Shown here: positions 1,969-29,491 of the stretch, one piece after another
Position numbering within the stretch: the stretch's first letter is position 1
Layout: each line of letters begins with the position of its first letter
Origin: Pedobacter sp.
GTDB taxonomy: Bacteria; Desulfobacterota; Desulfuromonadia; Desulfuromonadales; Syntrophotaleaceae
Length of the DNA stretch: 64,000 nt
Assembly (NCBI GenBank): GCA_050253415.1
Contig: JBFWJC010000004.1
Location: 256,001-320,000, forward strand
Direction: 5' to 3'
Made by a program: the position numbers and the translations under genes
Notes under the pieces: generated by a model
Told to the model about the DNA's origin: nothing
Databases searched by the model: none
The model's input: the letters and a program-made list of their open reading frames with translations, nothing else

Positions 1969-2051
1969 CTACCCTAGAACATAAGAGGAAACGCATAATT
2001 TCATGGGCGTCCCTAAACTCAAAATTTAGATTCTGTTTTTCTGGAAGCACC

Positions 2052-2088
2052 CCAGTATTTTCCGTCCGCGTTGATTAAGTGGTTAGCT
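2052..2088 (-). mobile_element. Truncated attC (left arm only)
   Basis: GCTAAC-CACTTA-ATCAAC-GCGGAC overlapping the stop of cassette gene 2075..2998; no right arm seen. Confidence 0.5.
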
Positions 2089-2998
2089 TTTTTTTCCTTG
2101 CTTCCATGAACTCTTGGTCTGACAGTGGTTTAAGAGGTGTATTCTTACCTCTTATCGGAGGCGTAGCAGTTGGTTCACAATATGGAGTAATTAGCGCACA
2201 GTGGGGTAGAATAAATTCTTTAACAAATGGTTGATTAACTGCCTCACTCTTTACCCAAATTTCGCCAGGAACATCAAATACCCAGAGTAAATCTTTTCTT
2301 TTTTCATAATTAAATTGTAAATCGATAATTTCTGAAAGAGCACGAACCGCAGCTTCTGCATTTTTTTCAAAATCATAGTTGTCGTTATAATGGATCGAAT
2401 CGTTTCTAAATGATTTTAATATTAAAAATATCTCCGCAACTTTACTTGAAATGACGCCCCATTCTTTTAGTACTAAGACAGGATAGTCCCATTGGTCGAA
2501 ACTATCTTTTTTGTAAATTTTTTTATAGTGACTTGAACTTTTGAAATATTCTCTGGTTTTGATGATTAATCTATTTAGGATTCTTTCGCCTAGTGCGCCA
2601 GCACTTGTCATGGCGGGATAATAACGACCGCAACAGTAAGAGGAGACAATGTCCCACAAGAAACTGTAGTATTCCTCGGGAATTCCAAGGAATGAAAGGT
2701 TTAACTCTTTAAATCTGGACAGCTTTTCGGGAAAACCTTGCTCACCCCATTCTGCTTTTAAGCCATTTGATATGTGATCATAATGACCACGCATGGACTC
2801 ATTGTTTAACAGTCTCACTCTTGTATCGAGTGCAAGATTGAAAACACGGTACATCAAAGCAATATTGGGGCATACGAAATTACTTAGGACAGGGTCCTTG
2901 CCCTCTCTTTGTCGCTGAGTCAACTGGTCAAAATCGATTTCGATTTTGTGTTGTTGATTGCAGCGGTCACAGTTAAATGTCTGAGTTCTTATGTCCAT
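2075..2998 (-). CDS. Integron cassette protein, HEPN/DUF4145-like
   Basis: AT-rich; N-terminal CxxC; GALGERIL helix and RNDSIH (RxxxxH) motif; directly downstream of attC. Confidence 0.7.
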   Translation of the reverse strand: MDIRTQTFNCDRCNQQHKIEIDFDQLTQRQREGKDPVLSNFVCPNIALMYRVFNLALDTRVRLLNNESMRGHYDHISNGLKAEWGEQGFPEKLSRFKELNLSFLGIPEEYYSFLWDIVSSYCCGRYYPAMTSAGALGERILNRLIIKTREYFKSSSHYKKIYKKDSFDQWDYPVLVLKEWGVISSKVAEIFLILKSFRNDSIHYNDNYDFEKNAEAAVRALSEIIDLQFNYEKRKDLLWVFDVPGEIWVKSEAVNQPFVKEFILPHCALITPYCEPTATPPIRGKNTPLKPLSDQEFMEARKKKLTT

Positions 2999-3003
2999 AA
3001 TTT

Positions 3004-3077
3004 ATTTAACGCCTGCATCACCGGTCGCTGAAATTGCGTAGCGCTGTAAGCGATCCGAGTGCATGCTGTTGTTATGG
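3004..3077 (-). mobile_element. attC recombination site (74 bp)
   Basis: Minus strand CCATAAC-AACAGC-ATGCAC...GGTGATGCAGGC-GTTAAAT: R'', L'', L' and R' boxes with a palindromic centre, just after the stop of 3079..4440. Confidence 0.9.
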
Positions 3078-3078
3078 A

Positions 3079-4440
3079 TTATTTCTTTGTTAGATTCTCA
3101 ATAGTTAACTTAATGAGGTCAAACAATGAAGAGCTTGTGACTTTCTCTTTGGTCGCAATGTCTGCAGCATGATTATTTCCAAAAAATCTTTCAGTAAGTT
3201 TTGCTTTTAATTCGTGTTTTGTTATATCAGGCATCTTTTCAAGATAAGGATCGATAGACGCCAATTCAAGCTCTGCTTGTCGATTTCGGTACTCGGAGTT
3301 TCTGTGTTTTGACGATTCTGATGCTGCATATGTTGCTGGGACTGCAAGAACTAATGCAGCCCCTAGCCTAAATAAGGATAATTTCCAGTCGAAACCATTT
3401 TGTGCCGATATAAAAATAGTTAAACCAATAACAAGAACCATACCTGTCATTAAGAATAAGGCTACCTTACGAAGCCAATCAGCAGTTTCCTTTTCTTGAT
3501 TCGCGATTCTCTGAAAATTTCCAGTTACTCCAATATTACCAATAATTTGAACTAAATTTGATGCCTCCTCTTTCTTTTGTTGTAGTTCATTTAAAATTGA
3601 TTCAGCATCAGTTTTAAAAGATTCGATTTGCTTTTTTGTTTCTTCTTGCAATTGATTAGATATCTTTTCTGCTCGACCATCAATTTCGTTTATCCGCTCA
3701 GAAATTTTCGCTATCTTTAAATTTGCGCTTTCTTCAACTTTTTTCAGAAAAGATGAGAAGTTTTCGTTGTTTTGGCTTACAAGCTCATCGATTTTTTGTT
3801 CGTGACTTTCGAGAGCCGCCGTGTGCTCATCATTTCGTTGTTTTTCTGCTTCTGCAAACTGTTCTCTGCGCTTTTCAGCGGCATCAGAAAATTGCTGTTG
3901 GAATTGAGAGATGGCAGTGTCCAACCTACCTTTTTGGCTATTGATCTCATTGGTTGTTGCAGTGGCTTTAGCCGTTAATTCTTCAATCTTGCTTTTTAAA
4001 TTATTAAAATCTTCCTCAAGATACCTGATATATTGTCCTGCAGACTTTCTAAAATTTCCAATTGAGTCCCGAAGCCCATCTATGTCGGTGACTTGCGTAA
4101 CAGAAAACAACATTCGGCCTTGTACCAGAAGGTGGTCAGCCTGATTATTTGCATTTACAAGATGCCCCCTATTTTGATTTGCATTGTAATTTGAAAGCTC
4201 TTGTATGATGTTTTGCGAATGGTTGCTCAAATTTTGTAACGTTGGTTTTGGGGCCATCAAGGGATCTGTGCTGGATAAAGCATTTGCAACAAATAATATA
4301 ATTTGAGTAAGCCTGTTATAATCTTCTAGCGCATCTGATTGTTTTTCAGCATGCTTCCCAACCTGTTCTAGCAAATCTTTGATCTGTTGAATTTGGGCGT
4401 GTATCTGATGATTCTCAAATGAATTTAGCCATTCAGACAT
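3079..4440 (-). CDS. Integron cassette protein: long coiled coil plus two C-terminal TM helices
   Basis: AT-rich; heptad-rich; hydrophobic segments near the C-terminus; bounded by GTTATGG (4461-4467) and attC. Confidence 0.85.
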   Translation of the reverse strand: MSEWLNSFENHQIHAQIQQIKDLLEQVGKHAEKQSDALEDYNRLTQIILFVANALSSTDPLMAPKPTLQNLSNHSQNIIQELSNYNANQNRGHLVNANNQADHLLVQGRMLFSVTQVTDIDGLRDSIGNFRKSAGQYIRYLEEDFNNLKSKIEELTAKATATTNEINSQKGRLDTAISQFQQQFSDAAEKRREQFAEAEKQRNDEHTAALESHEQKIDELVSQNNENFSSFLKKVEESANLKIAKISERINEIDGRAEKISNQLQEETKKQIESFKTDAESILNELQQKKEEASNLVQIIGNIGVTGNFQRIANQEKETADWLRKVALFLMTGMVLVIGLTIFISAQNGFDWKLSLFRLGAALVLAVPATYAASESSKHRNSEYRNRQAELELASIDPYLEKMPDITKHELKAKLTERFFGNNHAADIATKEKVTSSSLFDLIKLTIENLTKK

Positions 4441-4460
4441 TCATTAACCTCTCTTTTTTG

Positions 4461-4500
4461 CCATAACTATAAATGGGCAGTCTGGATAAAACTGTAAACA
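4461..4500 (-). mobile_element. Putative attI (core GTTATGG)
   Basis: GTTATGG is the exact complement of this cassette's attC R'' CCATAAC; not preceded by an attC palindrome; lies just 3' of the intI remnant. Confidence 0.6.
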
Positions 4501-4630
4501 CAGACACTAACCTGTCTGTATAAGACAATTGCCAACTCATTGACCATCCAACAATTCCACTACATTTTCAGACACTTAACCAATTCATTACTAAAACACC
4601 ATCCGGGATATACAGACTGGATATACCAGC

Positions 4631-4781
4631 TCAAAGGGTATCGACCGGGGTTCGGACACCGTGCCCTCCTTTTATTGAGAACATGGGTATGGATCATTGT
4701 CGTATTGATATCCTTGTGACCAAGCAACTCCTGAATCGCCCGAAGAGCCTAACCATCTTCAAAAAGATGAGTAGCGAAAGG
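4631..4781 (-). pseudogene. intI: Integron integrase 3' remnant
   Basis: [35 protein letters not shown]/(frameshift)[12 protein letters not shown] matches the IntI C-terminus; stop, frameshift and catalytic Tyr->His. Confidence 0.85.
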
Positions 4782-4802
4782 GAAAAGGAGATCCCCCTGA
4801 AA

Positions 4803-4896
4803 TTTTTACCTTTGCCTTACAAAAAAAGCCGCCGACCGGATTAACTCCGGCCTAGCGGCTCTGTTCATTCAGGTATGACCTTGGTGCTTCCCCGGC
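4803..4896. repeat. Direct repeat copy 2
   Basis: aaaaagccgccgaccggattaactccggcctagcggctctgttcatt..ttggtgcttc. Confidence 0.75.
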
Positions 4897-5131
4897 ATAT
4901 CCCCTCCAAATTACAATAAAAAAAGACATTAATAAATACGGCCAAATAACCGTACTTGTCAAACTTTTTAATATTGGAATTGGGCAGAGGCAAGGATTTC
5001 AGCGTATTCGGGTAGCTCCTATACTTTCAATAAATTTACCCTCAGCACACCGACCTAACTGTATCGCCAAAAGAGGATTCTTTTCGCATGACCAGGAGCG
5101 GAGCCAACCCACACCGGCACGTCGCAAAGTG

Positions 5132-5587
5132 TTAATTGACCTCTTCCGGCAACAGCCGATGTGCCAACCGATACGCCACCCACACCAGCAGCGGCGCCAC
5201 GACCAACCACACCGCCAGCCCGCGCAGGTTGACCTGCCAGAACAGTCGGGCGCACAGCAACGGATCGACCGCCAAAGTTTCCCGTAACCGGGGCAACACC
5301 TCCGGCTGCCCGGGTGCCAGCAGATATTGTCCGGCCGTGAGAAACGGAAACAACAAGGCTAGCTGTAACGGGTACACGGCATAGTTGGCGGCCTGCACGA
5401 CGACCACCGGCAACCGCAGCGCAACGGCTAGCAGCAGGCAAAGCAGAGTCGTCCCCCACACCAGCGGCGCCAATCCCAGGGTCACCCCCACTGCCAAAGC
5501 CCAGGCAAGGCGACGTCGGGAATGCCCGCGCAGCAGCAGCCGATGCAGCAAATCCCGCAGGGCCATCATTTTGCTTTGGACAGACAC
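5132..5587 (-). CDS. DUF2062-family membrane protein
   Basis: LAWALAVGVTLGLAPLVWGTT..VQAANYAVYPLQL pattern; starts 3 bp after the upstream stop. Confidence 0.75.
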   Translation of the reverse strand: MSVQSKMMALRDLLHRLLLRGHSRRRLAWALAVGVTLGLAPLVWGTTLLCLLLAVALRLPVVVVQAANYAVYPLQLALLFPFLTAGQYLLAPGQPEVLPRLRETLAVDPLLCARLFWQVNLRGLAVWLVVAPLLVWVAYRLAHRLLPEEVN

Positions 5588-5590
5588 TAT

Positions 5591-6640
5591 TTAGATTCGG
5601 TCATGGTGTACGAAAAAACTCATGCGGGCGCCGGTCACCTGACTGCGGCCCATGCTGATGAATACAAGCAGCCACAAGCCCTGCAAAGCCAGCAGCACGC
5701 CCGGATGCCACAAGCTGTCCAGTCCGGCGGCGATATCGGGCAGCGGTGCGGAGGCTCCGAACCATGCGGCCAGTCCGATGGCGTAAGGCAGGATCAACAA
5801 GCTGAGAATCTGATAAACGGAAAGTCGCCCGCTGCCGCGCCAATCGGCGCGCAGGGTTTCCGACCAGGCGCGCCAGCCCTGGGTCACCAGGGCGGCGACC
5901 AGAAACGAAGCGGCGAAATGCCCCGTCAGGAACAGACCGGTGGTAAGCAGACCGGTACCGCAATAAACCATGGCGGTCAGGGCCTGCACCGGCAGCACCG
6001 GCTCGCCCTCCAGCCCGTCGGCATAGGCGATCTTTTTGGTATCGCCGCTGAACTGAAAATGCCAGCGACTGAACAGGCGCTGCACCCAGGGGTTGCATTC
6101 GGCCAGCGGCTTGCCGTAGCAGCATCCGAAACTGATGCAGGCCAGACGCCCCAGCCCCTCGCCGAAGGCATATCCCGCCGTCAAGGCCGCGAGGGTCGGC
6201 AGCATCGGCAACGACGCCCCCGCCCCTGCGGGCAGCAAACGGTTGACCGCCGTGATGATCCAGGGGGCCAGTACGAAGCCGACGAAGGCCGCCGCGCCGA
6301 CGGAGAAGGTGTGGGCCTTGCCTTCGATCAGGGCGGCGAGGCCCTTGGCCGCCACCAGGCACGCGATCAGCAGGGTGACCGCCAGCAAGAGGGTCGCCTG
6401 GTGCGACACGCCGATGCCGCCGAGCAGGCTGAGGATCAGCACTACCGAGGCCAGACAAGAGGTTGCGGTCAGCAAGCCGTACCAGGTCAGGTTGTGCCCC
6501 TGCCATTCGCCGCTGCCCGCATCGAAACGCGGCACGGTGGCGGCGAACTGCCAATGCCGCCCCGGCAGGCAACGAAAGCCCCAGTACAGGACCGCACCGG
6601 TAACCAGCGCCAACATCGAAAGAAACCACAAATTCATCAT
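5591..6640 (-). CDS. Divergent Lgt-family (diacylglyceryl transferase-like) protein
   Basis: GEGLGRLACISFGCCYGKP Lgt signature and ETLR; multi-TM. Confidence 0.8.
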   Translation of the reverse strand: MMNLWFLSMLALVTGAVLYWGFRCLPGRHWQFAATVPRFDAGSGEWQGHNLTWYGLLTATSCLASVVLILSLLGGIGVSHQATLLLAVTLLIACLVAAKGLAALIEGKAHTFSVGAAAFVGFVLAPWIITAVNRLLPAGAGASLPMLPTLAALTAGYAFGEGLGRLACISFGCCYGKPLAECNPWVQRLFSRWHFQFSGDTKKIAYADGLEGEPVLPVQALTAMVYCGTGLLTTGLFLTGHFAASFLVAALVTQGWRAWSETLRADWRGSGRLSVYQILSLLILPYAIGLAAWFGASAPLPDIAAGLDSLWHPGVLLALQGLWLLVFISMGRSQVTGARMSFFVHHDRI

Positions 6641-6655
6641 CGCCTCACCCTTTCT

Positions 6656-6775
6656 GGCGTCGCAAAAAGTCCGTCCTACGGCGTTACGGCGTTTTTTCAG
6701 GATCTCGACATACCTGATGTATGCCTTCGCCCCTAAAAAACCACCAAGCCTTGTAGGTCGAATTTTTGCTTAGCC
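6656..6775. repeat. MITE/REP-like element inside the operon
   Basis: Imperfect terminal inverted repeats GGCGTCGCAAAAAGTCCG / TCGAATTTTTGCTTAGCC with nested palindromes. Confidence 0.6.
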
Positions 6776-6813
6776 TTTCTACGAGTTTTTCTAAAACATC
6801 ACTTTTCCATAAG

Positions 6814-7830
6814 TTACGCGTCCGTCGGCATGGCGATGCGCGAGCGCACCTGCACTTCGGTCTCCACCAGCGACCGCCCGAATCCCTGGGAAAAACGACT
6901 CGACACCTGCGCCCGCCCCTGATTGCGCAGCAGGTCTTCGTCAAACCGTACCCGACTGGGCTCGAAGATCAGCACGTCGGTACTGCTGCCGGGTTTGAAC
7001 AGACTTTTGGGACGCCCGCGCCCGACGTTCAGACCAGGCCGCATCGGGAGCGGATCGGCATAAGCATGGTCGCTGTAGCACTGCACCACTTCGCCGATCA
7101 TCAGGGCCACCACCTCGATCATGGCCACCAGGCCGACGCCGCTGCCGCCGGGTACGTCGGTATCGAACACCGTGACCACGCGGCGATTTTTGGAATAAGG
7201 CGTCACCGCTGTCACCACCGCTTGCGGATTGCAGCTGTGGAAGACGCCATCCAGTTCGTAAAAATCGATGACGCGACCGCTTACCGGGGTGTGGTTGTAG
7301 TGATACTTGTCGGGCGTCAGGCGAAAGATGGCGAAATCCCCGCCGGCAAAGGCCTTTTGCCAGCGCGGCCGGTCGCAGCCCAACAGCTCTTCGAAATCGA
7401 AAAACTTGCCCTTGAGAAACAGTTGGCAATCCTCGCGGAAGGAGCCGATCAGCATGCGGGCATCGGCGGGGGAAAGGACCGCGCGCGGTTCGTCCGGCAC
7501 CGGTCGGCACTCCCAGTAGCGGATCTTGCGCTCGAAAACTTTGCGGGCCGTATCCAGCTGCTCGAGGGGATCGAGACATTCCGCAAGATCGACCCCGGCC
7601 TCCTTCAGAAAGTTGCGATTGCCCAGCACCCGGCAGCCGAGGGCGAAATCGTAGTTGAACAGGGCCAGCGCCGCCGAACAGCGGGGGCTGGTAAAGGCGT
7701 TAAACAGTTTCGGAGCGTGCTCCCGCAGGGGATGGTAAAGAAACCGGACCAGGCGGTCGCCGAATAGCTGTTCGGTGCGCACCGTCCCGGTGTCCCGTTC
7801 AACGTATTGATGGGGAACCGACATCGGCAT
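6814..7830 (-). CDS. Phosphatidylserine decarboxylase-family proenzyme (pyruvoyl)
   Basis: SPADAR, RLTPDKYHYNHTP, FKPGSST cleavage motif; start at 7830 or 7824 after AAGGGA. Confidence 0.85.
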   Translation of the reverse strand: MPMSVPHQYVERDTGTVRTEQLFGDRLVRFLYHPLREHAPKLFNAFTSPRCSAALALFNYDFALGCRVLGNRNFLKEAGVDLAECLDPLEQLDTARKVFERKIRYWECRPVPDEPRAVLSPADARMLIGSFREDCQLFLKGKFFDFEELLGCDRPRWQKAFAGGDFAIFRLTPDKYHYNHTPVSGRVIDFYELDGVFHSCNPQAVVTAVTPYSKNRRVVTVFDTDVPGGSGVGLVAMIEVVALMIGEVVQCYSDHAYADPLPMRPGLNVGRGRPKSLFKPGSSTDVLIFEPSRVRFDEDLLRNQGRAQVSSRFSQGFGRSLVETEVQVRSRIAMPTDA

Positions 7831-10270
7831 GAGTCCCTTCTGTAGTGTGTTGGCCGGCACGGGCGGCGTCATGATGAACGGATAGCAGCAACAGGTGGAT
7901 GAGGCGCCGCAAACTGCCGGCAGGCAACTTTTCGTCAAGGCAATCGCGGCGCACCACGCGCAGAAAATCGCTGGCCGAGCCGGCGCCCAGCAATGCATGC
8001 AGGGCCTGGCGCAGATCGGCGTCACGGGTGGCGGCGCATTCGAGTTGGACCAGATCCGCTTCCAGGTCGCGCAGCCCTTCCTCCAGCTGGCGAAGCCGCA
8101 GGGGGCCGCGATAGTAGTCTTCGGCGGCCCGATTGAACTCCTGCGCCGGCACCGCCATGGGATCGATCGCCCCCAGTTCGGAGAGGATGCCGTTGGTCAA
8201 ACGACCGGCGGCGGAAAAAACGCCGGGAAGCTCGAGGCGCAGTCGCAGATCGCGCATCAATTCCCCCAGCCCCATGGCTTCGATCAATTCCGCGCCGTCC
8301 GCTTCAACCACCTCCAGCAGTGCACGCTGGTAGGCCTCCAACGGCACGCTCGAATAACCGGGATAGCGGCGGCTGGCGCGCAGACCGTCGGTTTGCCGCA
8401 TGATACGGCGCAGCAACCGGTTGCGGGTGTTTTTGCGCACGAAAAAAGTCGGAATGCCCAGCGCCGCGCCGAAAAACATCTGGCGGCGCTCGCTTTCGGT
8501 GACCGGATCGTCCGGAATGTCACGATGGTCGTAACTACCCTGCGCCAGGTACTTGTAGGCCAGGGCCACCAGCAGCGTCTGCAGGCTGGCCGCCTGCCCC
8601 ATATCGCGGGAAAATTCGGGAAACAGGCTGTATTGGCGGCCTTCGAAACCGCAGAATCCCATCACATCGAACTGGCGCTGTTTGCAGGCCAGATACAGGG
8701 ACATGCGCTCGTCGAACACCCCCTGCTCCGCCAGATCGCGTTTGAGATGCTGCTGGCTGTCGATGCTGCCGTCCAGCGCCGGTGAGTGATAGGTACTCAG
8801 CAGCCAGACCGGATAATCGATGAGGCGAAAATCCGGCACAAAATCCCCCCGCAGCCGAAAGGCTCCGGCCACCGCGCGGTCGATCCAGGGCGGTCCGAAG
8901 GGCGTCATCGAGCGGCCCAGCACCGACAGGTTGGCCTTTTTGCGCCAGCGCAGCCACAGCATGCGCAGATGGGTGTAATCGAGTTCGTGCGCCAGAAAGC
9001 CGAGGGCCTTTTCCGGATGAAAGTCGGCGAACCCGAGGCGCGAAGGTGCGGCGCTGTAGGTACCGACGAACAGCGGCATGAAATGCTCGACCAGCTTGAT
9101 CACCAGATCACCGAGCCGTTTTTCCCCGGCAGCGTCAAAACCTGCCAGACCGGCGCCGCGCAAGGCGGTCAAACGACGGCTGCCAAGGGTGATATGCACG
9201 CCGTTATTGGCCAGGCTGGTGTTGGAGACATTGGGCAGCACCACCAGGTTATTGAGGATGATACCGGCGTCGCGCAGCTTGGCGACCGCATTGAGCTGGC
9301 TGCGCCCGAGCACCTCGTGGCACAGATGCATGTAGCGATGCTTATCTTCGCCCCGGTCCCAGCCGGACAGGCAGGGACTCATGAACAGCTCGCGATACAA
9401 AGCATCCGGGATCAGGTCGTTGAGGCGTCGCTGCCGCTGCGGCGGCTGTGGCGCGGCGTAGATCATGGCGCGTTGGCCGTGGGCACCGAGTTTAAAATGC
9501 TCGTTGGCGTACTGCACCAGTAAATGGGTCAGCGCAAACCGCTTGGCCGATTCGCGCCCCAGTGCCTGGCCCTGGCCACGATGCGGAGTCAGCGGCACCA
9601 CGAAAAACGAAAAGGTCTCCGGCGAAGTGTTGTCGTTGAGAAAATGCTCCAGCAGACGCATCCCGGTACCACGGACCGCCGATGGCAGCGGCTCCTCACC
9701 ACCGATGGCATCGGCCAGCGCCAGCTTGACCAGGTAGCTGATCGGCACGCGCAGCTGTTCCCCCTGTCGGTCGCGCAGCACAAAACGAGTATGATCGCTG
9801 CGCAAACCGCAGCCGGGGCGGCTTTTATCGACCAGCAGATCCCGCTGGAAAACCGCATCCGCATGGCTGTTAAGGGCATGGCGCGGAAACCGCACCCAGC
9901 TGTTTTCCCAGATCCCGTCACGGTTGTCCTCGATCCAGGCGGTCAAGTCATCGACCTGCTGGCGGGGAGTTTCCCCCGCATGAGCCCGGCGCGCCATCTG
10001 CGCAAAAAAGCTCGATTCCCGCACGCTGCAGGGCAAGTCGACCACACTGGCGGCACCGACCACCGCCGCCTGCAGCTCCGCTTCCGCACCGGCGGTGACA
10101 TCCTCGCCGACAAACGGCAGCGTGGCCAGCAGGCTCTCGGTACTGGATACGTCCACACCCAGGCGGGACAGCAGTTCAGCGGGCGGCAGAGTTATCGGGG
10201 CAGGATTAAGCCCGGCAGGGCAAGGCTCCTCGACGAGTTTGAGACTGGATAATTGTTGTGCTACGGACAT
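7799..10270 (-). CDS. Large hypothetical protein (~823 aa), possible glutamine-synthetase/glutamate-cysteine-ligase fold
   Basis: Long ORF with RBS AGGAAGGGG; motifs TAGAEAELQ, NTSPET, NNGVHITLG, GFEGR (fold call is inference). Confidence 0.8.
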   Translation of the reverse strand: MSVAQQLSSLKLVEEPCPAGLNPAPITLPPAELLSRLGVDVSSTESLLATLPFVGEDVTAGAEAELQAAVVGAASVVDLPCSVRESSFFAQMARRAHAGETPRQQVDDLTAWIEDNRDGIWENSWVRFPRHALNSHADAVFQRDLLVDKSRPGCGLRSDHTRFVLRDRQGEQLRVPISYLVKLALADAIGGEEPLPSAVRGTGMRLLEHFLNDNTSPETFSFFVVPLTPHRGQGQALGRESAKRFALTHLLVQYANEHFKLGAHGQRAMIYAAPQPPQRQRRLNDLIPDALYRELFMSPCLSGWDRGEDKHRYMHLCHEVLGRSQLNAVAKLRDAGIILNNLVVLPNVSNTSLANNGVHITLGSRRLTALRGAGLAGFDAAGEKRLGDLVIKLVEHFMPLFVGTYSAAPSRLGFADFHPEKALGFLAHELDYTHLRMLWLRWRKKANLSVLGRSMTPFGPPWIDRAVAGAFRLRGDFVPDFRLIDYPVWLLSTYHSPALDGSIDSQQHLKRDLAEQGVFDERMSLYLACKQRQFDVMGFCGFEGRQYSLFPEFSRDMGQAASLQTLLVALAYKYLAQGSYDHRDIPDDPVTESERRQMFFGAALGIPTFFVRKNTRNRLLRRIMRQTDGLRASRRYPGYSSVPLEAYQRALLEVVEADGAELIEAMGLGELMRDLRLRLELPGVFSAAGRLTNGILSELGAIDPMAVPAQEFNRAAEDYYRGPLRLRQLEEGLRDLEADLVQLECAATRDADLRQALHALLGAGSASDFLRVVRRDCLDEKLPAGSLRRLIHLLLLSVHHDAARAGQHTTEGTHADVGSPSIR

Positions 10271-10333
10271 CGGCACCCCTTCCTGACCTATGTGCCTGGA
10301 GATGTCAGACACATGCACTTCTTGTTGCCGGTG

Positions 10334-10376
10334 AAATTATCCTATGGAGATTAGGGATGCGTTACAGGCGGGTTAT
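10334..10376 (-). promoter_or_regulatory. Pho-box-like promoter site 1
   Basis: Minus strand ATAAC-N6-GTAAC-N6-CTAAT-N10-TAATTT. Confidence 0.6.
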
Positions 10377-10454: not shown

Positions 10455-12915
10455 AGGGGAGCCATTTTTTGCTTACTTTTTTGTGGGCTTGATCAAAAAG
10501 TCAGGTGCCGGGCGGGGGGCGCGATCTCGCGGTCTTGTAGTTGTTCGTTTGGTTTCTTAAACACTTCAACTTCAACTTCTACACCGCCGGTCCCGGCCGG
10601 CAGCCGGCTTACTTTCTTTACCCGTCTATAGAAAGTAAGCAAAGAAAGGACGTAACGTCTGGCTTCGCCGTTATGTCTGTCGCGAAGTGGCTTGGCTCGA
10701 CGCACCTTACTGGTAACGGATAAGGCATCCGCCTTCGTAGGGCTTCATTTGCCGGCGGAGGTGGGGCGCACAGCTCGCCGCGTAGCTGTTGCAGGCACCG
10801 GCTCTGCTAGTTTTATAAACGCTTTTGCCTCTGCCGCTAATCCCCTGTGACGCTGCCGGAATGGAGCGACCGGCGGGAGAAACAGGCGGAGGACTGAGCG
10901 TAGCGAATCTTCTCCGCCCGCCCGGCGGTTGCGGAATGCAGGGTATCCGCCGCAGGCGGGCCAGGAAAGGGGCGCGCTTTTCTGCTTACTCTTTTGACGC
11001 GCTTTAAAAGAGTAAGGCGCCGGGCGGGGGCGCGGCCCCGCGGTCTTGCATGCAAGGGTTGGATTCTTGAAAACCGAAATTCAACACCGCCGGTCCCGGC
11101 CGGCAGCCGGCTTACTTTCTTTACTCGTCTATAGAAAGTAAGCAAAGAAAGGACGTAACGTCTGGCTTCGCCGTTATGTCTGTCGCGAAGCAAGCTTGGC
11201 TCGACGCACCTTACCGGGCAAAGACAAACGGCGCGTCTGCGTAGGGCTTCATTTGCCGGCGGAGGTGGAGCGCACAGCTCGCCGCGTAGCTGTTGCTGGA
11301 ACCGGCGCTGCTAGTTTTATAAACGCATTTGCCTCTTCCGCTAATCCCCTGTGACGCAGCCGGAGTGGAGCGACCGGCGGGCGAAACAGGCGGAGGACTG
11401 AGCGCAGCGAATCTTCTCCGCCCGCCCGGCGGTTGCGGAATGCAGGGTATCCGCCGCAGGCGGGCAAGGAAAGGGGCGCGCTTTTCTGCTTACTCTTTTG
11501 AGGCGTATTAAAAGAGTAAGGCGACGGGCGGGGGCGCGGCCCCGCGGTCTTGCATGCAAGGGTTGGATTCTTGAAAACCGAAATGCAACACCGCCGGTCC
11601 CGGCCGGCAGCCGGCTTACTTTCTTTACCCGTCTATAGAAAGTAAGCAAAGAAAGGACGTAACGTCTGGCTTCGCCGTTATGTCTGTCGCAAAGAGGCTT
11701 GGCTCGACGCACCTTACTGGTAACGGATAAGGCATCCGTCTTCGTAGGGCTTCATTTGCCGGCGGAGGTGGGGCGCACAGCTCGCCGCGTAGCTGTTGCT
11801 GGAACCGGCGCTGCTAGTTTTTTTAAACGCTTTTGCGATTATTTTTGCTTTTGTCTCCGCCTTGGCATTCCCCTGTGACGCAGCCGGAGTGGAGCGACCG
11901 GCGGGCGAAACAGGCGGAGGACTGAGCGCAGCGAATCTTCTCCGCCCGCCCGGCGGTTGCGGAATGCAGGGTATCCGCCGCAGGCGGGCAAGGAAAGGGG
12001 CGCGCTTTTCTGCTTACTCTTTAGACGCGCATCAAAAGAGTAAGGCGCCGGGCGGGGGCGCGGCCCCGCGGTCTTGTATGTAAGGGGTGGATTCCTGAAA
12101 ACCGAAATTCAACACCGCCGGTCCCGGCCGGCAGCCGGCTTACTTTCTTTACCCGTCTATAGAAAGTAAGCAAAGAAAGGACGTAACGTCTGGCTTCGCC
12201 GTTATGTCTGTCGCGAAGTGGCTTGGCTCGACGCACCTTACTGGTAACGGATAAGGCATCCGTCTGCGTCGGGCTTCATTTGCCGGCGGAGGTGGGGCGC
12301 ACAGCTCGCCGCGTAGCTGTTGCTGGAACCGGCGCTGCTAGTTTTTTTAAACGCTTTTGCGATTATTTTTGCTTTTGTCTCCGCCTTGGTATTCCCCTGT
12401 GACGCAGCCGGAGTGGAGCGACCGGCGGGCGAAACAGGCGGAGGACTGAGCGCAGCGAATCTTCTCCGCCCGCCCGGCGGTTGCGGAATGCAGGGTATCC
12501 GCCGCAGGCGGGCAAGGAAAGGGGCGCGCTTTTCTGCTTACTCTTTAGACGCGCATCAAAAGAGTAAGGCGCCGGGCGGGGGCGCGGCCCCGCGGTCTTG
12601 TATGTAAGGGGTGGATTCCTGAAAACCGAAATTCAACACCGCCGGTCCCGGCCGGCAGCCGGCTTACTTTCTTTACCCGTCTATAGAAAGTAAGCAAAGA
12701 AAGGACGTAACACCTGGCTTCGCCGTTATGTCTGTCGCGAAGCGAGCTTGGCTCGACGCACCTTACCGGGAAAGAACAAGCGGCGCGTCTGCGTCGGGCT
12801 TCACTTGCCGGCGGAGGTGGGGCGCACAGCTCGCCGCGTAGCTGTTGCTGGAACCGGCGCTGCTAGTTTTATAAACGCATTTGCCTCTTCCGTTTATCCC
12901 CTGTGACGCTGCCGG
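10455..12915 (+). repeat. Tandem array of a ~504-524 bp two-module palindromic repeat (5 A modules, 4 full B modules)
   Basis: caccgccggtcccggccggcagccggcttactttc begins at ~10583, 11086, 11589, 12114 and 12637; B module atcccctgtgacgc...ccccgcggtcttg. Confidence 0.95.
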
Positions 12916-16989: not shown

Positions 16990-17982
16990 GGAACCTGCCG
17001 GGCGAGGCGCCATCCCGCGGTCTGGATTTTGTTCGTTTGGTTTCTTAAACACTTCAACTTCTACACCGCCGGTCCCGGCCGGCAGCCGGCTTACTTTCTT
17101 TACCCGTCTATAGAAAGTAAGCAAAGAAAGGACGTAATGTCTGGCTTCGCCGTTATGTCTGTCGCGAAGGAGCTTGGCTCGACGCACCTTGCTGGGCAAA
17201 GACAAACGGCGCGTCTGCGTAGGGCTTCATTTGCCGGCGGAGGTGAGGCGCACAGCTCGCCGCGTCGCTGTTGCAGGCACCGGCGCTGCTAGTTTTTATA
17301 AACGCTTTTGCGATTATTTTCGCTTTCGCCTCTGCCGTTTATCCCCTGTGACGCAGCCGGAGTGGAGCGACCGGCGGGCGAAACAGGCGGAGGACTGAGC
17401 GTAGCGAATCTTCTCCGCCCGCCGGGCGGGGGCGCGGCCCCGCGATCTTGAAGTTGGTTTGGTTTTTCTTGAAACCTCAACCTCAACACCGCCGGTCCCG
17501 GCCGGCAGCCGGGATACTTTCTTTGCAAGGCCCCAAAGAAAGTATCCAAAGAAATGGTTTGGCTTCGCCGTTATGTCTATCGCGAAGGAGCTTGGCTCGA
17601 TGCGCCTTACCGGTAACGGATAAGCCATACGTCTTCGTAGGGCTTCATTTGCCGGCTGAAGAGAGGCGCGTAGCTCGCAGCACAGCCGTCGCCGGCACCG
17701 GCGCTGCTGCCTCGAGAAGACCACAAGCACGTTTTGCTTTAGATTTCAACCAACTGCTCCTTGACGCCCGTTCGCAAGAGACGAACCCTCTCGTAGCAAC
17801 CTCCCAACGGCCGACAAAAGGAGAGCCGAAAGAAACCTCCGACGCCATCCATCGAACGCCGGTCGTTAACCTCCGACCCCCGTCGCGCCATGCCCCCCGC
17901 AGGGGAGCCCTTTTTTGCTTACTTTTTGTGGGCTTGGACAAAAAGTCAGGCGCCGGGCGGGGGCGCGTCCCCGCGGTCTTAG
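16990..17982 (+). repeat. Second array of the modular repeat (A, internally deleted B, diverged A, variant module)
   Basis: Same A/B sequences as 10455-12915. Confidence 0.9.
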
Positions 17983-20297: not shown

Positions 20298-20867
20298 TCA
20301 GATAAACAGAAAATCACAGCCCCAGGCGATGCCACGCCCCAGCAAGGTACCGAGCAGCCCGCCGACCAGGACATCGGTCGGGTAATGGGCACCCAGGTAA
20401 ACCCGGGACAGACCGATCAGCACGGCCGAGGTCAACAACAGCGGCACCAGCGTCGGAACCAGACTCCCCAGGCTGCCGTACATGGCAAAGGCGGTCAGCG
20501 TATGCCCCGAGGGGAAAGAAAAACGATCCGGCGGCGGCAGCAGGCAGGACAGGTCCGACCAGCGTTCAAAGGGGCGCGGCCGACGGATCAGATGTTTAAG
20601 GAGGCTGAACAGTCCCACGGCCGCCATGGCCGCCAGCGCCGCTGCGGCTACCGCCAAACGCTCCGGCGTCCCGCCCAGTAGCAACAGGGTAATCCCGACA
20701 GCCCCCCAGAGCGGACCGTCGCCAAGTCGGCTGACGAACTTGAAGCTTGCCGTCAACCACGGGTAGTCCCGTAACCAACCCAGGCGGCGCATCAGCCCGG
20801 CTTCCACGGGTGTGACATAGTGGGCGTAACCGGCGGAAAATCTCTTTTGGACGTAGGAATCGGACAT
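20298..20867 (-). CDS. PAP2-family lipid phosphatase
   Basis: KHLIRRPRP, SFPSGH, SRVYLGAHYPTD. Confidence 0.93.
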   Translation of the reverse strand: MSDSYVQKRFSAGYAHYVTPVEAGLMRRLGWLRDYPWLTASFKFVSRLGDGPLWGAVGITLLLLGGTPERLAVAAAALAAMAAVGLFSLLKHLIRRPRPFERWSDLSCLLPPPDRFSFPSGHTLTAFAMYGSLGSLVPTLVPLLLTSAVLIGLSRVYLGAHYPTDVLVGGLLGTLLGRGIAWGCDFLFI

Positions 20868-20930: not shown

Positions 20931-20984
20931 AGGATATTCCGCTGAGATTTAATAGCTGTTAGCAACTTGCTAGAGTTGTGTTGC
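20931..20984 (-). promoter_or_regulatory. Pho-box-like promoter site 2
   Basis: Minus strand GCAAC-N6-CTAGC-N6-CTAAC-N6-TAAAT-N10-TATCCT. Confidence 0.55.
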
Positions 20985-21183: not shown

Positions 21184-22983
21184 TCAAGATTGTGCAAAGG
21201 AGCCATTGGCAGCCATGCCGGGGGTTTCCAGTTCAGACAAAGCACACTGGCGCCGATCGATGAACAGATGGCTGCCGGCAACCTTTTTGGCCTGCTGTTT
21301 CATTTCCACCGCTGCGGTGGAAATCGCGTGGCAAGAGCTAAACGCTCCCCCAACGGCATAAACCGCGCCGATAGACAGACTGACCAGGGGAAAAAACTTG
21401 TGACTGCCATCGCGAGCTTGACTTCGAATCCCCCCCTGTTGCAAATCGCAGGGGTCATAAAGAGCCTTGATCTCCTCATCAAACCGGCGCAACACCTGGT
21501 CACAACGTCGCTGCCAATCGTCGGTACACAACACCGCCAGAAAATCATCGCCGCCGATATGCCCGATAAAATCCAGGCGGCTGTCGGCTTCTTCCTGCAG
21601 CAGGCGAGCGAGCAGGCAAATGACCTGATCGCCGCGACGGTATCCGTAGGTATCGTTGAACGGTTTGAAATGATCGAGGTCGCAATAACAGGCGGCGAAC
21701 GGGGTAGCATCCGCCAGGAGTTTATCCAGGTGTTCGTTGATAAGCACATTGCCCGGCAGCAAAGTCAGGGGGTTGGCATGGCGGGCATGACTGATTTGCA
21801 GATCGGTGATTTCCCGCAACAGGGACAAAAGGGTGCCGGTACCGACATATCTGCCGCTTTCCGTGATGATGAAATCATCCAGGCAGGTAAACTCGCGCGA
21901 GCTGGTAATCTGCTGACTGAGTTGTTCAAGGGGCTGATCTTTTTCGATAATCAGCGGCTGGGCATCCATGAATTTTGCGACCGCCATACGCCCGTAAAGA
22001 TCGCGACCGTAGCGGCTGCCGAGCATGTTCATGAATTGATGGCGCGAAACCAGGCCGACCGGGACATCCCCGTCACCGACCACGGGCAAGGCCTGCACTG
22101 AAGGCAGATCGACAAACATGTCGGCCACTTCATGGACCTGCACTCCGGGCGAAACCGATGGCACCCTGCGAATCAGGCAACTGACATTGCGCATTTTACC
22201 GCTGACCATCGGGCGGTCTTTGCCCATGCCCAAAGCGATCAACCCGACTTTATCCCCGGACAGATCGGGGTGCGAGGACGGCCTGGCGAAGAAATAACCC
22301 TGCCCGAAAGTGACGCCCAATTTGGACACGGCACGGAATTCCGCTTCGGTTTCGATCCCCTCGGCAATCGTCTGGCAACCAAGTTCCTTGGAGATTTCCT
22401 GCATGGAGCGGATAAATTGTCCCTTGGTCGGGTCGGAGTCGATGTTCTGGATGAAATGACGGTCGAATTTAACGAAATCGGGGCGCAACTCCGACCACAG
22501 ACGCAAACCGGCATACCCCGCCCCCAGATCGTCGATGGCCACGGCGAACCCCATGCTGCGATAATGGGCGATGGCGCGCCGCACCAGCTCAAAATCTTCA
22601 ATAGGATAATGTTCGGTCAGTTCGATAACGACCTGGTCCGGCGTAAGCCCCAAATCACGCAAAACCCGACGGGTCATGCCGGAACAGAAATCGGCCTGCA
22701 TCAAGGTCTCCGGACAGACGTTGAGAAACAGCTTGCCCGGCAGCTTGCGGGCAGAAAAATTGGCGATGTGCACTTCGCGACAGAGCCGGTCAAGTTCACC
22801 AAGCCGCCCTGCACGGTCCGCAACGGAAAGCAAGGTGGTCGGCGCATGCAGAGGGCTGTCCGATGGACCGCGCATCAGCGCCTCATAGCCGATGACCACG
22901 CCCGCCTTCAGATCGATGATGGGCTGAAAAAGAGAAGTCAGGCGACGGTTATCGAGAATATCCTTCAGAATTTCGGCCAACAT
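21184..22983 (-). CDS. EAL-CBS-GGDEF c-di-GMP enzyme (RapA-like architecture)
   Basis: YEALMR, ELTE, DDLGAGY, AEGIE, QGY; CBS pair; HIGGDDF. Confidence 0.92.
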   Translation of the reverse strand: MLAEILKDILDNRRLTSLFQPIIDLKAGVVIGYEALMRGPSDSPLHAPTTLLSVADRAGRLGELDRLCREVHIANFSARKLPGKLFLNVCPETLMQADFCSGMTRRVLRDLGLTPDQVVIELTEHYPIEDFELVRRAIAHYRSMGFAVAIDDLGAGYAGLRLWSELRPDFVKFDRHFIQNIDSDPTKGQFIRSMQEISKELGCQTIAEGIETEAEFRAVSKLGVTFGQGYFFARPSSHPDLSGDKVGLIALGMGKDRPMVSGKMRNVSCLIRRVPSVSPGVQVHEVADMFVDLPSVQALPVVGDGDVPVGLVSRHQFMNMLGSRYGRDLYGRMAVAKFMDAQPLIIEKDQPLEQLSQQITSSREFTCLDDFIITESGRYVGTGTLLSLLREITDLQISHARHANPLTLLPGNVLINEHLDKLLADATPFAACYCDLDHFKPFNDTYGYRRGDQVICLLARLLQEEADSRLDFIGHIGGDDFLAVLCTDDWQRRCDQVLRRFDEEIKALYDPCDLQQGGIRSQARDGSHKFFPLVSLSIGAVYAVGGAFSSCHAISTAAVEMKQQAKKVAGSHLFIDRRQCALSELETPGMAANGSFAQS

Positions 22984-24139
22984 AATGGGATCGACCTCTT
23001 CCACATCGAACACCGGGGGCAACAACTTGATACTGCTCACGAACTTGCTCCAGAATATGATCCCAGCACTGCGTTTTGGCATACATACGGGCCGCCTGGC
23101 CCATACACTGACGCTGTTGTGCCATGATGGTTAGATGGGCCATGGCCCTTGCCAGGGCTCCGATGGTCCGCTCCTGGATAATCAGGCCGGTTTCCCCGTG
23201 GCGCACGATGTCCCGAGGGCCGGCGACATCAAAACCGATCACCGGCAACCCCGACGCCATGGCTTCCAGCATGACGTTGCCGAAGGTATCGGTCAGCGAG
23301 GGAAAAACGAACAAGTCGCCGGCAGCGTAGCTTTGCGCCAGGTCTTCGCCCCGCCGATACCCGGCAAACACCACCCCCTCTATAGCGGCCGCCTGCAAAG
23401 AGGCGCGCAGAGGTCCGTCTCCGATCAGCAACAGCCGGTCCGGCCCATCGGCGGGCCGGTTTTGCCAGGCATCCATAAGCAGGGGCAGGTTTTTTTCCGC
23501 CGCCAGCCGGCCGGCATAGACCGCCACCACTTCGTGATCGCCAATGCCCAGTTCACGGCGTACCGCGAGGTTGCGCCTGGCCGGATCGAACAGCCGGGTA
23601 TCGACTCCCCTGCCCCAGACCTTGACATGTTCAAAACCGCGCTGCACAAGCAAGTCACGGGTGGTCGACGTCGGGCACAAGGTGGCACGGGTAGCGTTAT
23701 GGAACCAGCGCAGATAACGCCAGGCCACCGGTTCCAGCCTGCCGAGCTTGTAAGCGGAAAGGTATTGGGGAAAGTTGGTGTGATAGGAACTCACAACCGG
23801 CAAACCGAGTTGCCGGCAGGCGCGCAGTGCCGACCAGCCCAGCGGGCCTTCGGTGGCAATGTGCACCACATCCGGTGAAAAGTTTCGCAGTTCACGCCGC
23901 AGATGGCGCGGTGCGACCATCGGGAGTTGTATCTCCCGGTAAAACGGCAACTGCCAACCGCGCCAGGAGTGGCGGATCAGGCCAGAGATAGCCTCACATT
24001 CCTCCTCGTATTCCGGCACCATAAGCTGGACCTGATCGCCCTGGCGCAGGCAATGCTCGACCAGCCGCCCCAGAGTGCGTGACACCCCGTTGATCTGCGG
24101 CATGTAGGTTTCGGTTACCAGGGTTATACGCAGTGGCAT
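22949..24139 (-). CDS. GT4-family glycosyltransferase
   Basis: TETYMPQINGV, HIATEGPLG, FPSLTDTFGNVMLEAMASGLPV; alternative start at 24184. Confidence 0.92.
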   Translation of the reverse strand: MPLRITLVTETYMPQINGVSRTLGRLVEHCLRQGDQVQLMVPEYEEECEAISGLIRHSWRGWQLPFYREIQLPMVAPRHLRRELRNFSPDVVHIATEGPLGWSALRACRQLGLPVVSSYHTNFPQYLSAYKLGRLEPVAWRYLRWFHNATRATLCPTSTTRDLLVQRGFEHVKVWGRGVDTRLFDPARRNLAVRRELGIGDHEVVAVYAGRLAAEKNLPLLMDAWQNRPADGPDRLLLIGDGPLRASLQAAAIEGVVFAGYRRGEDLAQSYAAGDLFVFPSLTDTFGNVMLEAMASGLPVIGFDVAGPRDIVRHGETGLIIQERTIGALARAMAHLTIMAQQRQCMGQAARMYAKTQCWDHILEQVREQYQVVAPGVRCGRGRSHYVGRNSEGYSR

Positions 24140-24186
24140 GACGGTTTCCAGAGAAGGGGGTGGAACGGACGAATTCGGGCGCATGC

Positions 24187-24455: not shown

Positions 24456-24701
24456 TCAACACCAGTCGGCATCCACCACGGACCCGAAACCTGTGCTCTC
24501 GTCGCGCGTACGGTTGAGATGCATGCGCCTTTGCAGGGACGCGCATTGCCGCTCAAGCCGCCGCACCTTGCGATGCAGCCTTTGCAGGCGCCCTTCGCTG
24601 CGCCGGGATTGCCAAAGCCGAGCGAGATTACGCCATGCGTCATCCAGCCAGAGCCTCACATTCAGTATCGCCACCATGGAAATAAGATTCATCATGCGCA
24701 C
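24456..24701 (-). CDS. Small basic hypothetical protein
   Basis: GGAGG RBS; overlaps the stop of the upstream acyltransferase. Confidence 0.55.
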   Translation of the reverse strand: MRMMNLISMVAILNVRLWLDDAWRNLARLWQSRRSEGRLQRLHRKVRRLERQCASLQRRMHLNRTRDESTGFGSVVDADWC

Positions 24702-26553: not shown

Positions 26554-26596
26554 AGGCTAGCGCAGCAAAATTAGGGAAAGGTTATAAATGAGTTAA
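26554..26596 (-). promoter_or_regulatory. Pho-box-like promoter site 3
   Basis: Minus strand TTAAC-N6-ATAAC-N6-CTAAT-N10-TAGCCT. Confidence 0.6.
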
Positions 26597-26625
26597 TTTC
26601 AGGTAGGGATGGGGGATCAGCGAAG

Positions 26626-27160
26626 TTGATGTTAAGGTTTTTAAGAAACCAAACGAGCACCATCTAGACCGCGGGGTCGCGCCCCCGCCCGGCGCCTTAC
26701 TCTTTTAAAGCGCGTCAAAAGAGTAAGCAGAAAAGCGCGCCCCTTTCCTTGCCCGCCTGCGGCGGATACCCTGCATTTCGCAACCGCCGGGCGGACGGAG
26801 AAGATTCGCTGCGCTCAGTCCTCCGCCTTTTTCGCCCGCCAGCCGCTCCACTCCGGCTGCGTCACAGGGGATAAACGGCAGAGGCAAAAGCAAAATTAAA
26901 CGCAAAAGCGTTTATAAAACTAGCAGCACCGGTGCCTGCAACAGCTACGCGGCGAGTTGCGCGCCCCACCTCCGCCGACAAATGAAGCCCTACGCAGTCG
27001 CACCGATTGTTCTTTCTCGGCAAGGTGCGTCAAGCCAAGCCCCTTCGCGCCAGACATAACGGCGAAGCCAGACCCTGCGTCCTTTCTTTGCTTATTTTCT
27101 ATAGACGGGTAAAGAAAGTAAGCCGGCTGCCGGCCGGGACCGGCGAACTTGATGTTAAGG
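26626..27160 (-). repeat. Modular repeat copy (A+B), inverted
   Basis: Reverse complement of the 10455-12915 unit. Confidence 0.9.
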
Positions 27161-27306
27161 TTTCAGCTTTCAAATCTTCCAAACTATCAACTAAATAATT
27201 CGTTTTCCGCCAACAAGCCTCACCTGATAGAATAGTTTTCAAGAGTAAAACGACAAGCCCGATAATCTCCTGGCTTCCTCAGATATTTACCGAAAGGAAC
27301 CACCCC

Positions 27307-28137: not shown

Positions 28138-28139
28138 GA

Positions 28140-28860: not shown

Positions 28861-29038
28861 TTTTTGCACCAGGCTCGAACTTCAATACAGCAAATTCACA
28901 GTGGATAATCGTTGTAGCCGTTTACAAAACCTTGCGGCACCCAACAAATCTGTTGCAAATCAAACGTATATGCTTCATATACAGATGCTTTTCTTCAACA
29001 CCGTCCCGATCTGCGGCACGTCCGCATAAGGCAAATTT

Positions 29039-29491
29039 ATGAAACTGGAAATTGGCTGGCGCGAATGGCTGGCACTGCCCGAGCTGGGGATACCCGCCAT
29101 CAAGGCCAAGGTCGATACCGGCGCACGCACCTCAGCCCTGCACGCATTTTTTATCGAACCGTTCGAAAGAGACGGGAAGGAGCATGTCCGCTTCGGGCTG
29201 CACCCCCTACAACGCCGCACCGACATCGAGAAGATTTGCGAGGCGCCGGTCAAGGATCGCAGGATTGTAACCGACAGCGGCGGACACCGGGAATCGCGTT
29301 ATATTATCGAAACCATGGTTTGCTTCAGGGAGTATCACTGGCCGATTGAAATCACCCTGACAAATCGCGAAACCATGTTGTTTCGCATGTTGTTGGGGAG
29401 ATCGGCCATGGCCGGACGATTCTATGTCGACCCGGCCGCGTCTTATCTGGGGGGCCGTCACCATGGCAAAATCTACACGCAGGAAGGTTGA
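29039..29491 (+). CDS. RimK-associated retropepsin-like protease ('ATP-dependent Zn protease' family)
   Basis: [26 protein letters not shown]. Confidence 0.9.

Follow-up and report, generated by a model that had tools for sequence, protein, structure and literature searches.

The stretch analysed here, positions 5132-10376 of a 64-kb window (the whole stretch of contig JBFWJC010000004.1 under analysis, 64,000 nucleotides from a genome of 4.10 Mb in 18 contigs), carries four genes on the minus strand, referred to as A, B, C and D, which together span 5132-10273. The organism is a member of the Pelobacter/Syntrophotalea group within the Desulfuromonadales. Genes A, B and C were found to travel together across related genomes, and here they lie behind what is most likely the Pho box of this group. 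At a probability of about 40%, we consider them to be a phosphate-starvation module, to which D has been added in this lineage, that would make a phosphorus-sparing, polar diacylglycerol lipid with an amino-acid head group. All steps of the proposed chemistry are inferred from the known activities of three enzyme families: the glutamate-cysteine ligases (GCL) and glutamine synthetases (GS) for A, the phosphatidylserine decarboxylases (Psd) for B and the prolipoprotein diacylglyceryl transferases (Lgt) for C.

Organization of the operon

The G+C content of the stretch was 61-64%. Gene A (7799..10273, minus strand) encodes 824 aa from a start taken as the ATG at 10273, which is preceded by GGAAGGGG; the open frame begins further out, at GTG 10318. 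Gene B (6814..7830, minus strand) encodes 338 aa from a start taken as the ATG at 7830, preceded by GAAGGGA, and here too the open frame begins further out, at GTG 8025. The ATG of B lies ahead of the TGA stop of A (7799-7801), and this overlap of 32 nt suggests that the translation of A and B is coupled. Gene C (5591..6640, minus strand) encodes 349 aa, and its stop codon (5591-5593) is separated by a gap of 3 nt from the GTG at 5587 that starts gene D (5132..5587, minus strand, 151 aa).

Between B and C lies a spacer of 173 bp (6641..6813, no strand assigned). Four further partial copies of it were found elsewhere in the genome, with 77-87% identity over 122-151 bp, and it was absent from the two most closely related loci, L001 and L002, where the gap between B and C is only ~23-26 bp. 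The spacer is therefore, judging by these comparisons, a small inserted repeat. Both the tight, co-oriented arrangement of the four genes and the insertion had been proposed in a sequence-only reading of this DNA, and both were borne out. No Rfam family was found in or near the operon and no convincing terminator within it. PADLOC, which covers defence systems, gave no match for any of the four proteins.

Gene A

The product of gene A appears soluble, with no hydrophobic or transmembrane (TM) segment and no export signal. As with PADLOC, it had no match in Pfam or NCBIfam, and 26 of its relatives likewise gave no Pfam match at E values up to 5 and no NCBIfam match. The family is nevertheless large, with at least 2850 relatives among 8000 scored candidates. 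In the best 120 listed, none carried a Pfam domain and those with a name were all called hypothetical. A phmmer search of 1.84 billion representatives returned 742 clusters (50% identity), the best 150 of which all belonged to the A family. The closest named relative among the matches listed was Pcar_2302 of Syntrophotalea carbinolica, at 80% identity. Searching the PDB sequences with a profile of A gave nothing credible, the best hit being a spurious one to NifB (E 0.17), and nothing was found in the ESM Atlas.

A structural model of A was then compared with known structures. The model, built with AlphaFold2 from an alignment of 26 rows, had a mean predicted local distance difference test score (pLDDT) of 73.8 and a predicted template modelling score of 0.79, with low confidence at residues 300-356 and 414-444. 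Foldseek gave no match at E<=0.001; its best rows were GshF (3ln7, E 3.5e-3, probability 1.00) and E. coli gamma-glutamylcysteine synthetase (GCS). A VIA-align comparison covering 48,161 chains placed three ligases of this kind at the top, namely GshF 3ln7 (Z 14.6, 382 aligned), GshA 3nzt (Z 14.4) and gamma-GCS 1v4g (Z 14.3), with 382-387 residues aligned. These were followed by the YbdK-like protein 1tt4 (Z 12.9), Dop (12.7), PafA (12.6), a plant GCL (9.8) and GS (8.2). The top 17 rows all belonged to the one GS/GCL superfamily, and the rows below them were helical-bundle matches to the C-terminal domain only. Based on the model, A is predicted to have a glutamate-cysteine-ligase/GS-type fold.

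In the GS/GCL fold, the metal- and ATP-binding residues are carried on sheet strands. The invariant residues E64, E66, E123, E219, H360, E544 and R546 of the A family fall on predicted sheet strands, and these acidic, His and Arg residues may form a metal- and ATP-binding active site. The catalytic fold is thus one that A would share with GshA and GshF, the YbdK-type ligases and PafA/Dop. In contrast to GshA, A is ~300 residues longer. It also differs from GshA and GshF in having an insert at residues 300-356 (PCLSGWDRGEDKHRYMHLCH...), which is strongly conserved although the model is poor there, and a C-terminal helical domain at residues 710-811, and from the GshA, GCS2 and PafA families in belonging to no named sequence family.

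Gene B

B matched the Psd family PF02666 at 126 bits (cut-off 22) but remained below the cut-offs of all five NCBIfam Psd equivalogs, the best score being 123.5 bits against 371. No export signal or TM segment was evident. In an alignment of 13 B-family rows with the canonical Psd of the same genome, the Asp of the PAD motif (D123), the His of the YH motif (H177) and the Gly-Ser cleavage site (G281-S282) were invariant in 14/14 rows. By these sequence features, B is a pyruvoyl enzyme of the Psd family that keeps the Asp-His-Ser self-processing triad. It shares the family and these three elements with E. coli Psd (7cnw/6l06), from which it differs by a conserved N-terminal HQYI(D/E)R region and by QCYS and CNP motifs of its own. 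The canonical, short psd lies on another contig (G000:C3:292922); compared with its product, B is a second copy that lacks the N-terminal hydrophobic segment.

The Psd family also includes PsiD, a soluble tryptophan decarboxylase, and several GS-fold enzymes glutamylate free amines. Potentially, A and B could then make a soluble metabolite, with B decarboxylating a free amino acid in the manner of PsiD, A acting as a gamma-glutamyl-amine synthetase and C serving as a membrane partner without diacylglyceryl transfer. B did match PsiD (9jer), but weakly (E 0.0098) and far less closely than E. coli Psd (7cnw, E 2.2e-11). A soluble product would also sit poorly with C, which is conserved and linked as tightly as A and B, and with the frequency of lipid genes among the neighbours of the module. 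This explanation is considered very unlikely.

A search for longer proteins containing B gave 5 matches, apparently chimeric or truncated gene calls. In one of these, the metagenomic protein P0272 (873 aa), residues 235-808 of A are joined with residues 58-252 of the B open frame (counted from GTG 8025), which may reflect either a naturally occurring fusion of the two genes or an artefactual frameshift.

Gene C

The match of C to the Lgt family PF01790 was weak but full-length (32.7 bits, cut-off 24.9), and the score against the NCBIfam equivalog NF000778 was 30.7 bits, with a cut-off of 334. A profile of C gave no match to PDB sequences at E values up to 10. At least 7 hydrophobic segments were identified in the protein. 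Its model (pLDDT 85.5) was aligned by VIA-align to E. coli Lgt 5azb at Z 14.4, over 234/284 residues with a root-mean-square deviation of 3.7, the next chain reaching only Z 5.5; Foldseek matched it to Lgt with a probability of 1.00 (E 2.6e-3). C is therefore predicted, by modelling, to have the 7-TM fold of Lgt. It is ~90 residues longer than Lgt and far below the equivalog cut-off.

To compare residues, C was aligned with the genome's own Lgt using hhalign, an alignment that is not significant by itself and was read together with the residues invariant in the C family. C keeps the WYG motif, the Arg of GR(L/I), the Gly that follows and the C-terminal R..E..R.D pattern, of which WYG, the GR(L/I) Arg and R..E..R.D are shared with 5azb and PF01790. 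The signature of E. coli Lgt is taken to be H103, R143, N146, E151, G154, R239 and E243. R143, G154, R239 and E243 are kept in C. At the positions of H103, N146 and E151, which are important in E. coli Lgt, C has V, C and C in this alignment. Where the Lgt signature reads HGG, C thus has FVG, and the N and E are both replaced by Cys, in an invariant CISFGCCYG. The replacing residues are invariant in 14 family members, as is the GRLACISFGCCYG motif. Because H103, N146 and E151 are replaced, the acceptor of C, or even its reaction, may differ from that of Lgt.

At least 2403 relatives of C were found, including, among the matches listed, Pcar_2300 at 91% identity. For neither A nor C was a characterised close relative found. 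A complex prediction of C with B scored 0.00, which gives no verdict either way. A canonical lgt is present elsewhere in the genome (266.7 bits, G000:C3:325328). Since both psd and lgt occur in canonical form on another contig, B and C are extra copies, and C, in contrast to the canonical Lgt, is always linked to A and B. The sequence-only reading had called A a ligase of the GS/GCS fold, B Psd-like and C an Lgt-like paralog. For A this was right at the level of fold, for B it agrees with the retained catalytic motifs, and for C it is supported by the predicted structure; the paralogy of B and C follows from the canonical copies.

Conservation of the module

The gene neighbourhood was examined in 23 related loci from species-representative genomes. 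B directly followed A in 20/23, and C followed B in 18/23, in the same order. Of the five loci without C, three (L003, L005 and L022) are fragments or stop in or at A, and L004 ends inside B. In the fifth, L009, a DDE transposase gene directly follows B (10507-12117, minus strand), and the remainder of the 16-kb locus beyond it contains no Lgt-like gene. A-B-C was also contiguous in 5/5 further genomes, one of which (L073) is the same contig as L016. Among 401 genomes sampled from the Thermodesulfobacteriota, 44 carried A, each in a single copy. By taxonomic rank, it occurred in 3/6 other genomes of the genus, 9/16 of the family and 4/24 of the other families of the order. On this comparative evidence, A-B-C is a conserved module that is accessory and patchy in the phylum, and the expected co-conservation of the three genes was seen.

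Gene D matched PF09835 (DUF2062) at 38.3 bits (cut-off 27.4) and encodes a membrane protein with 3-4 hydrophobic segments. It adjoined C in only 2/23 loci (L001 and L002) and in 4/5 genomes of the same family that carry A. As it was seen in those two loci and otherwise only in same-family genomes, D is, by distribution, a lineage-specific, family-level addition outside the A-B-C core. Its earlier assignment as the membrane partner of the pathway was accordingly not upheld by conservation.

All-against-all clustering of the ORFs (open reading frames) of the 23 loci revealed no widely shared gene besides A, B and C. This bears on whether the module instead lipidates a dedicated peptide or protein, with A performing a PafA-like ligation and C transferring diacylglycerol onto a target cysteine as Lgt does. 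The Lgt family is known only for lipidating protein cysteines, and the Z-scores of A with PafA and Dop are nearly as high as those with GshA. Against this, no small conserved ORF or substrate gene stands beside A-B-C across the loci, a Psd-type decarboxylase would have no obvious role, and three of the Lgt residues are missing in C. Protein or peptide lipidation is thus an improbable function for the module.

The promoter box and its probable link to phosphate

Upstream of A, a site resembling a Pho box was identified at 10350..10375 (minus strand), consisting of TAAC, TAAC and TAAT direct repeats with a spacing of 11 bp. No sigma-70 consensus promoter was found at the box; a -10-like GATAAT (10341-10336), read from the sequence, begins 9 nt after it. 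Exact copies of TAAC-N7-TAAC-N7-TAAT occur only twice in the genome, here and at 26570..26595 (minus strand), 55 nt upstream of an OlsF-like gene, and the two boxes also share CCCTAAT across the third repeat. When the pattern was relaxed to TAAY-N7-TAAY-N7-TAAY, three exact sites were found, preceding A, the OlsF-like gene and a gene for a PHO4-family phosphate transporter (769 aa). All three lie 32-218 nt upstream of, and point toward, their genes, the transporter site being one of four repeats at 218 nt. Boxes with one mismatch precede pstS, where the site was read directly from the sequence, and, with four repeats, a porin-like gene, after which come an OmpR-type (phoB-like) regulator, a PAS/HAMP histidine kinase (phoR-like) and pstS...phoU. 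The promoter of A therefore carries the type of box found at the pst and phoBR-like genes of the same genome.

The number of sites, three exact against 2.2 expected and 57 one-mismatch windows (~51 distinct sites) against 39-44 in three simulations, was at chance level, so the case rests on where the sites are placed. Annotation covered 10 of the ~51 distinct sites, these being intergenic with a downstream ORF. Three of the ten precede phosphate or lipid genes and, with the boxes of A and the OlsF-like gene, bring the sites in front of such genes to five. Four others precede unrelated genes (cdaA-like, NlpC/P60, acyl-CoA dehydrogenase and DUF362) and three precede short ORFs without a family; these seven were taken as chance.

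Across genomes, triples of T[ATC]A[CT] with 11-bp spacing were sought within 280 bp upstream of A. They were present in 9/23 loci compared with 8/2179 control windows from the same loci, and the box was conserved in L001 and L002. The nine loci represent only ~6 independent lineages, and the control windows are mostly coding DNA, poorer in A+T than promoters. In two distant genomes, G264 and G059, such repeats occur in both a pstS promoter and the promoter of A; G017 and G279 have a TAAC-N7-TAAC pair at pstS, and no such repeats were seen in G206.

Several of these observations count against a phosphate link: the chance-level number of sites, the small share of sites annotated and the seven among them without a relevant gene, the nature of the controls, and the 14/23 loci without a triple upstream of A. 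The repeats could also be bound by an OmpR-family regulator other than PhoB, and the module often lies near genes for histidine kinases, response regulators and EAL-GGDEF-CBS proteins. A box belonging to such a regulator, or arising by chance and bearing no relation to phosphate, would nevertheless have to account for three exact and two one-mismatch sites in promoters of phosphate and phosphorus-free-lipid genes, for repeats of the same kind in the pstS promoters of two distant genomes and for the enrichment upstream of A, and is regarded as unlikely. On the comparisons above, the box is most likely the Pho box of this group, and A-B-C(-D) and the OlsF-like gene may be placed, by inference only, in its Pho regulon.

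The 11-bp repeat promoter had also been described as shared by the OlsF-like gene and a nearby PAP2 gene. An exact copy was confirmed for the former, and the box proved to be shared further, with phosphate-uptake genes of the genome and with A promoters in distant genomes. The array upstream of PAP2 (20936..20983, minus strand; CAAC/TAGC/TAAC/AAAT) is weak, consisting of three overlapping windows that each have 2/12 mismatches.

Both box-bearing promoters, of A and of the OlsF-like gene, adjoin arrays of a 504-524-bp unit. Directly upstream of the A promoter, ~5 tandem copies (78-97% alike) occupy 10455-12915; the unit recurs inverted as an array upstream of the OlsF-like promoter (~26613-28844) and also at 16996-17980. 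Further arrays were found elsewhere in the genome, for example at G000:C4:214551-215577, C1:331017-332338 and C1:858024-859081. The unit has no Rfam family and its short ORFs have no Pfam match. That the box might be part of this neighbouring repeat element was considered and rejected, as the sequences around one box are unlike those around the other and the repeat stops ~30-95 bp short of them.

Proposed pathway and its alternatives

Three reactions are well established for the families concerned. In Lgt, a thiol displaces glycerol-1-phosphate from phosphatidylglycerol; Psd decarboxylates a lipid-bound alpha-amino acid through its pyruvoyl group; and GCL/GS enzymes form gamma-glutamyl amides with ATP. 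By analogy, C would take diacylglyceryl from phosphatidylglycerol and hand it to a small amino-acid or peptide acceptor, for which a cysteine-type thiol is the most economical guess and hence the most likely candidate. The glycerol-1-phosphate freed in this step would make its phosphate reusable by the cell. B would then decarboxylate the lipid-bound amino acid at its alpha-carboxyl, in the way that Psd converts phosphatidylserine (PS) to phosphatidylethanolamine (PE). A would act as an ATP-dependent carboxylate-amine ligase of the gamma-glutamylcysteine-synthetase type, either making the acceptor, such as a gamma-glutamyl-cysteine-like dipeptide, or capping the new amine with a glutamyl group to give a zwitterionic head. 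Expression would probably be switched on by a PhoB-like regulator through the three 11-bp-spaced TAAC/TAAT repeats, which would replace a -35 element. Because the module shares this control sequence with phosphate-uptake genes, the lipid would probably be synthesized at low phosphate.

In its most specific form, the pathway would begin with C alkylating free cysteine, or gamma-glutamyl-cysteine made by A, with the diacylglyceryl of phosphatidylglycerol. The product would be a thioether-linked, phosphorus-free mimic of PS, which B would convert to a mimic of PE and to which A would add a gamma-glutamyl cap that restores the zwitterion. This version, also built by analogy, is a speculative one and we hold it to be unlikely.

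A number of points weigh against the proposal of a phosphorus-sparing lipid. At the level of sequence, no link between A and the known ligases was detected, hhalign against the GCS2 alignment giving a probability of 0.16. The replacements in C, described above, bear on its acceptor and reaction. Lgt works at the outer side of the inner membrane, with its active site facing outwards, whereas A and B look cytoplasmic, having neither export signal nor TM segment. A route from phosphatidylglycerol alone would spare only part of the lipid phosphorus. Finally, we know of no lipid so far ascribed to the A-B-C module.

The same three enzymes could modify the head group of an ordinary phospholipid, with B converting PS to PE, A gamma-glutamylating or amidating the amine and C exchanging the head group or otherwise handling the lipid, so that membrane charge is adjusted under stress. 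GS/GCL-fold enzymes typically acylate primary amines with glutamate, as is known of the family, and the fold matches of A include gamma-glutamylmethylamide synthetase (9qur) and 1-naphthylamine GS (8wwu). The retention of all Psd motifs in B fits this function as well, as do the two Arg positions retained in C that bind the phosphate of phosphatidylglycerol in Lgt. A box common to an ornithine-lipid-type synthase and phosphate transporters, however, fits the sparing of phosphorus better, a housekeeping psd is already present in the genome, and no such lipid was found in those parts of the literature that the searches reached. Head-group modification is accordingly judged rather unlikely.

The purpose presumed for A-B-C, lipid remodelling under Pho control, is of a known kind. 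The known cases employ PlcP with glycosyltransferases, BtaA/BtaB for diacylglyceryltrimethylhomoserine, and OlsBA or OlsF for ornithine lipids. With these the module has in common the putative Pho box, shared with the OlsF-like gene, and the glycosyltransferase and PAP2 genes nearby. It differs in its enzymes, as the known Pho-controlled pathways are not known to use any of the Lgt, Psd or GCL type. Nor are these three enzyme types known to have been joined in one pathway before. A full-text literature search, within the portions of papers that it covers, returned no paper on the A-B-C combination or on Pcar_2300-2303. The module genes were also not mentioned in PMC5193443 or PMC3543383, as far as term look-up in these articles extends. 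To this extent the literature agrees with the statement in the sequence-only reading that no pathway with this gene combination had been described. The parts of the module come from known superfamilies, and their combination appears to be new.

Genomic neighbourhood

Four genes lie 10-16 kb upstream of A on the same strand: the OlsF-like gene with the box-bearing promoter (24692-26515, minus strand), a GT4 glycosyltransferase gene (22949-24184, minus strand), a gene for an EAL-GGDEF-CBS protein (21184-23082, minus strand) and PAP2 (20298-20867, minus strand). In L013 and L019, GT4 and PAP2 homologs come immediately after A-B-C, while a GT4 gene precedes the module in L006 and lies downstream of it in G017. 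Genes flanking the module in L002, L010, L012 and L016 include ones for EAL-GGDEF-CBS proteins. Other neighbours include an Aas-like protein with PP-binding, AMP-binding and acyltransferase domains (G264), a class-3 lipase (G206) and, upstream of the module in L013, L018 and L019, Ppx/GppA. In G059, pstS lies 17 kb from A (G059:C11:521718). As far as sequence comparison can tell, the genomic context leans toward membrane lipids and phosphate. Six PstS-family paralogs were also noted in another distant carrier genome, G206 (G206:C3:865452-907444), 12-55 kb from A.

Just downstream of D, an island of low G+C content (37-40%) begins, at ~2000-5000 of the window, and is probably an integrated element. 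It contains a coiled-coil-like ORF of 453 aa (3079-4440, minus strand), an ORF of 307 aa without a family and an integrase fragment (~4640-4790, minus strand) that appears to be the C-terminal remnant of a tyrosine recombinase.

Two clusters in the window contain RimK-type ATP-grasp proteins. The first (27307-31429) encodes a class-II amidotransferase, a Zn-protease-like protein, RimK and an AstE/AspA-like protein, and the second (60951-64000) a C39-like peptidase, an RLAN-RimK protein and a GCS2-family ligase cut off by the end of the window. Both clusters may serve to modify peptides, and neither has a link to the findings on A-B-C-D. An ordinary flavin mononucleotide riboswitch (53170-53318, 103.6 bits) was found directly upstream of a ribB-type DHBP synthase gene (53313-54062).

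Significance

Phospholipid replacement is one of the major strategies of microbes under phosphate scarcity, with glycolipids, betaine lipids and ornithine lipids as the known routes, and for many phosphorus-free lipids of anoxic sediments the responsible genes are still unassigned. The module described here is large and highly conserved, with at least 2850 relatives of A and at least 2403 of C, and has been without functional annotation. It is directly testable, since Syntrophotalea carbinolica DSM 2380, a relative available in culture, has the module as Pcar_2300 to Pcar_2302. There is a real chance that it yields a new lipid class. If the proposal is true, A-B-C would constitute a new lipid pathway and provide the first function of the Lgt family outside lipoprotein maturation, and A, an orphan family of ~800 residues with a fold of the glutathione-synthesis type, would gain a role. 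Were the thioether version also true, its products would form a new class of sulfur-linked, phosphorus-free glycerolipids, induced by phosphate starvation and widespread in anaerobic sediment bacteria.

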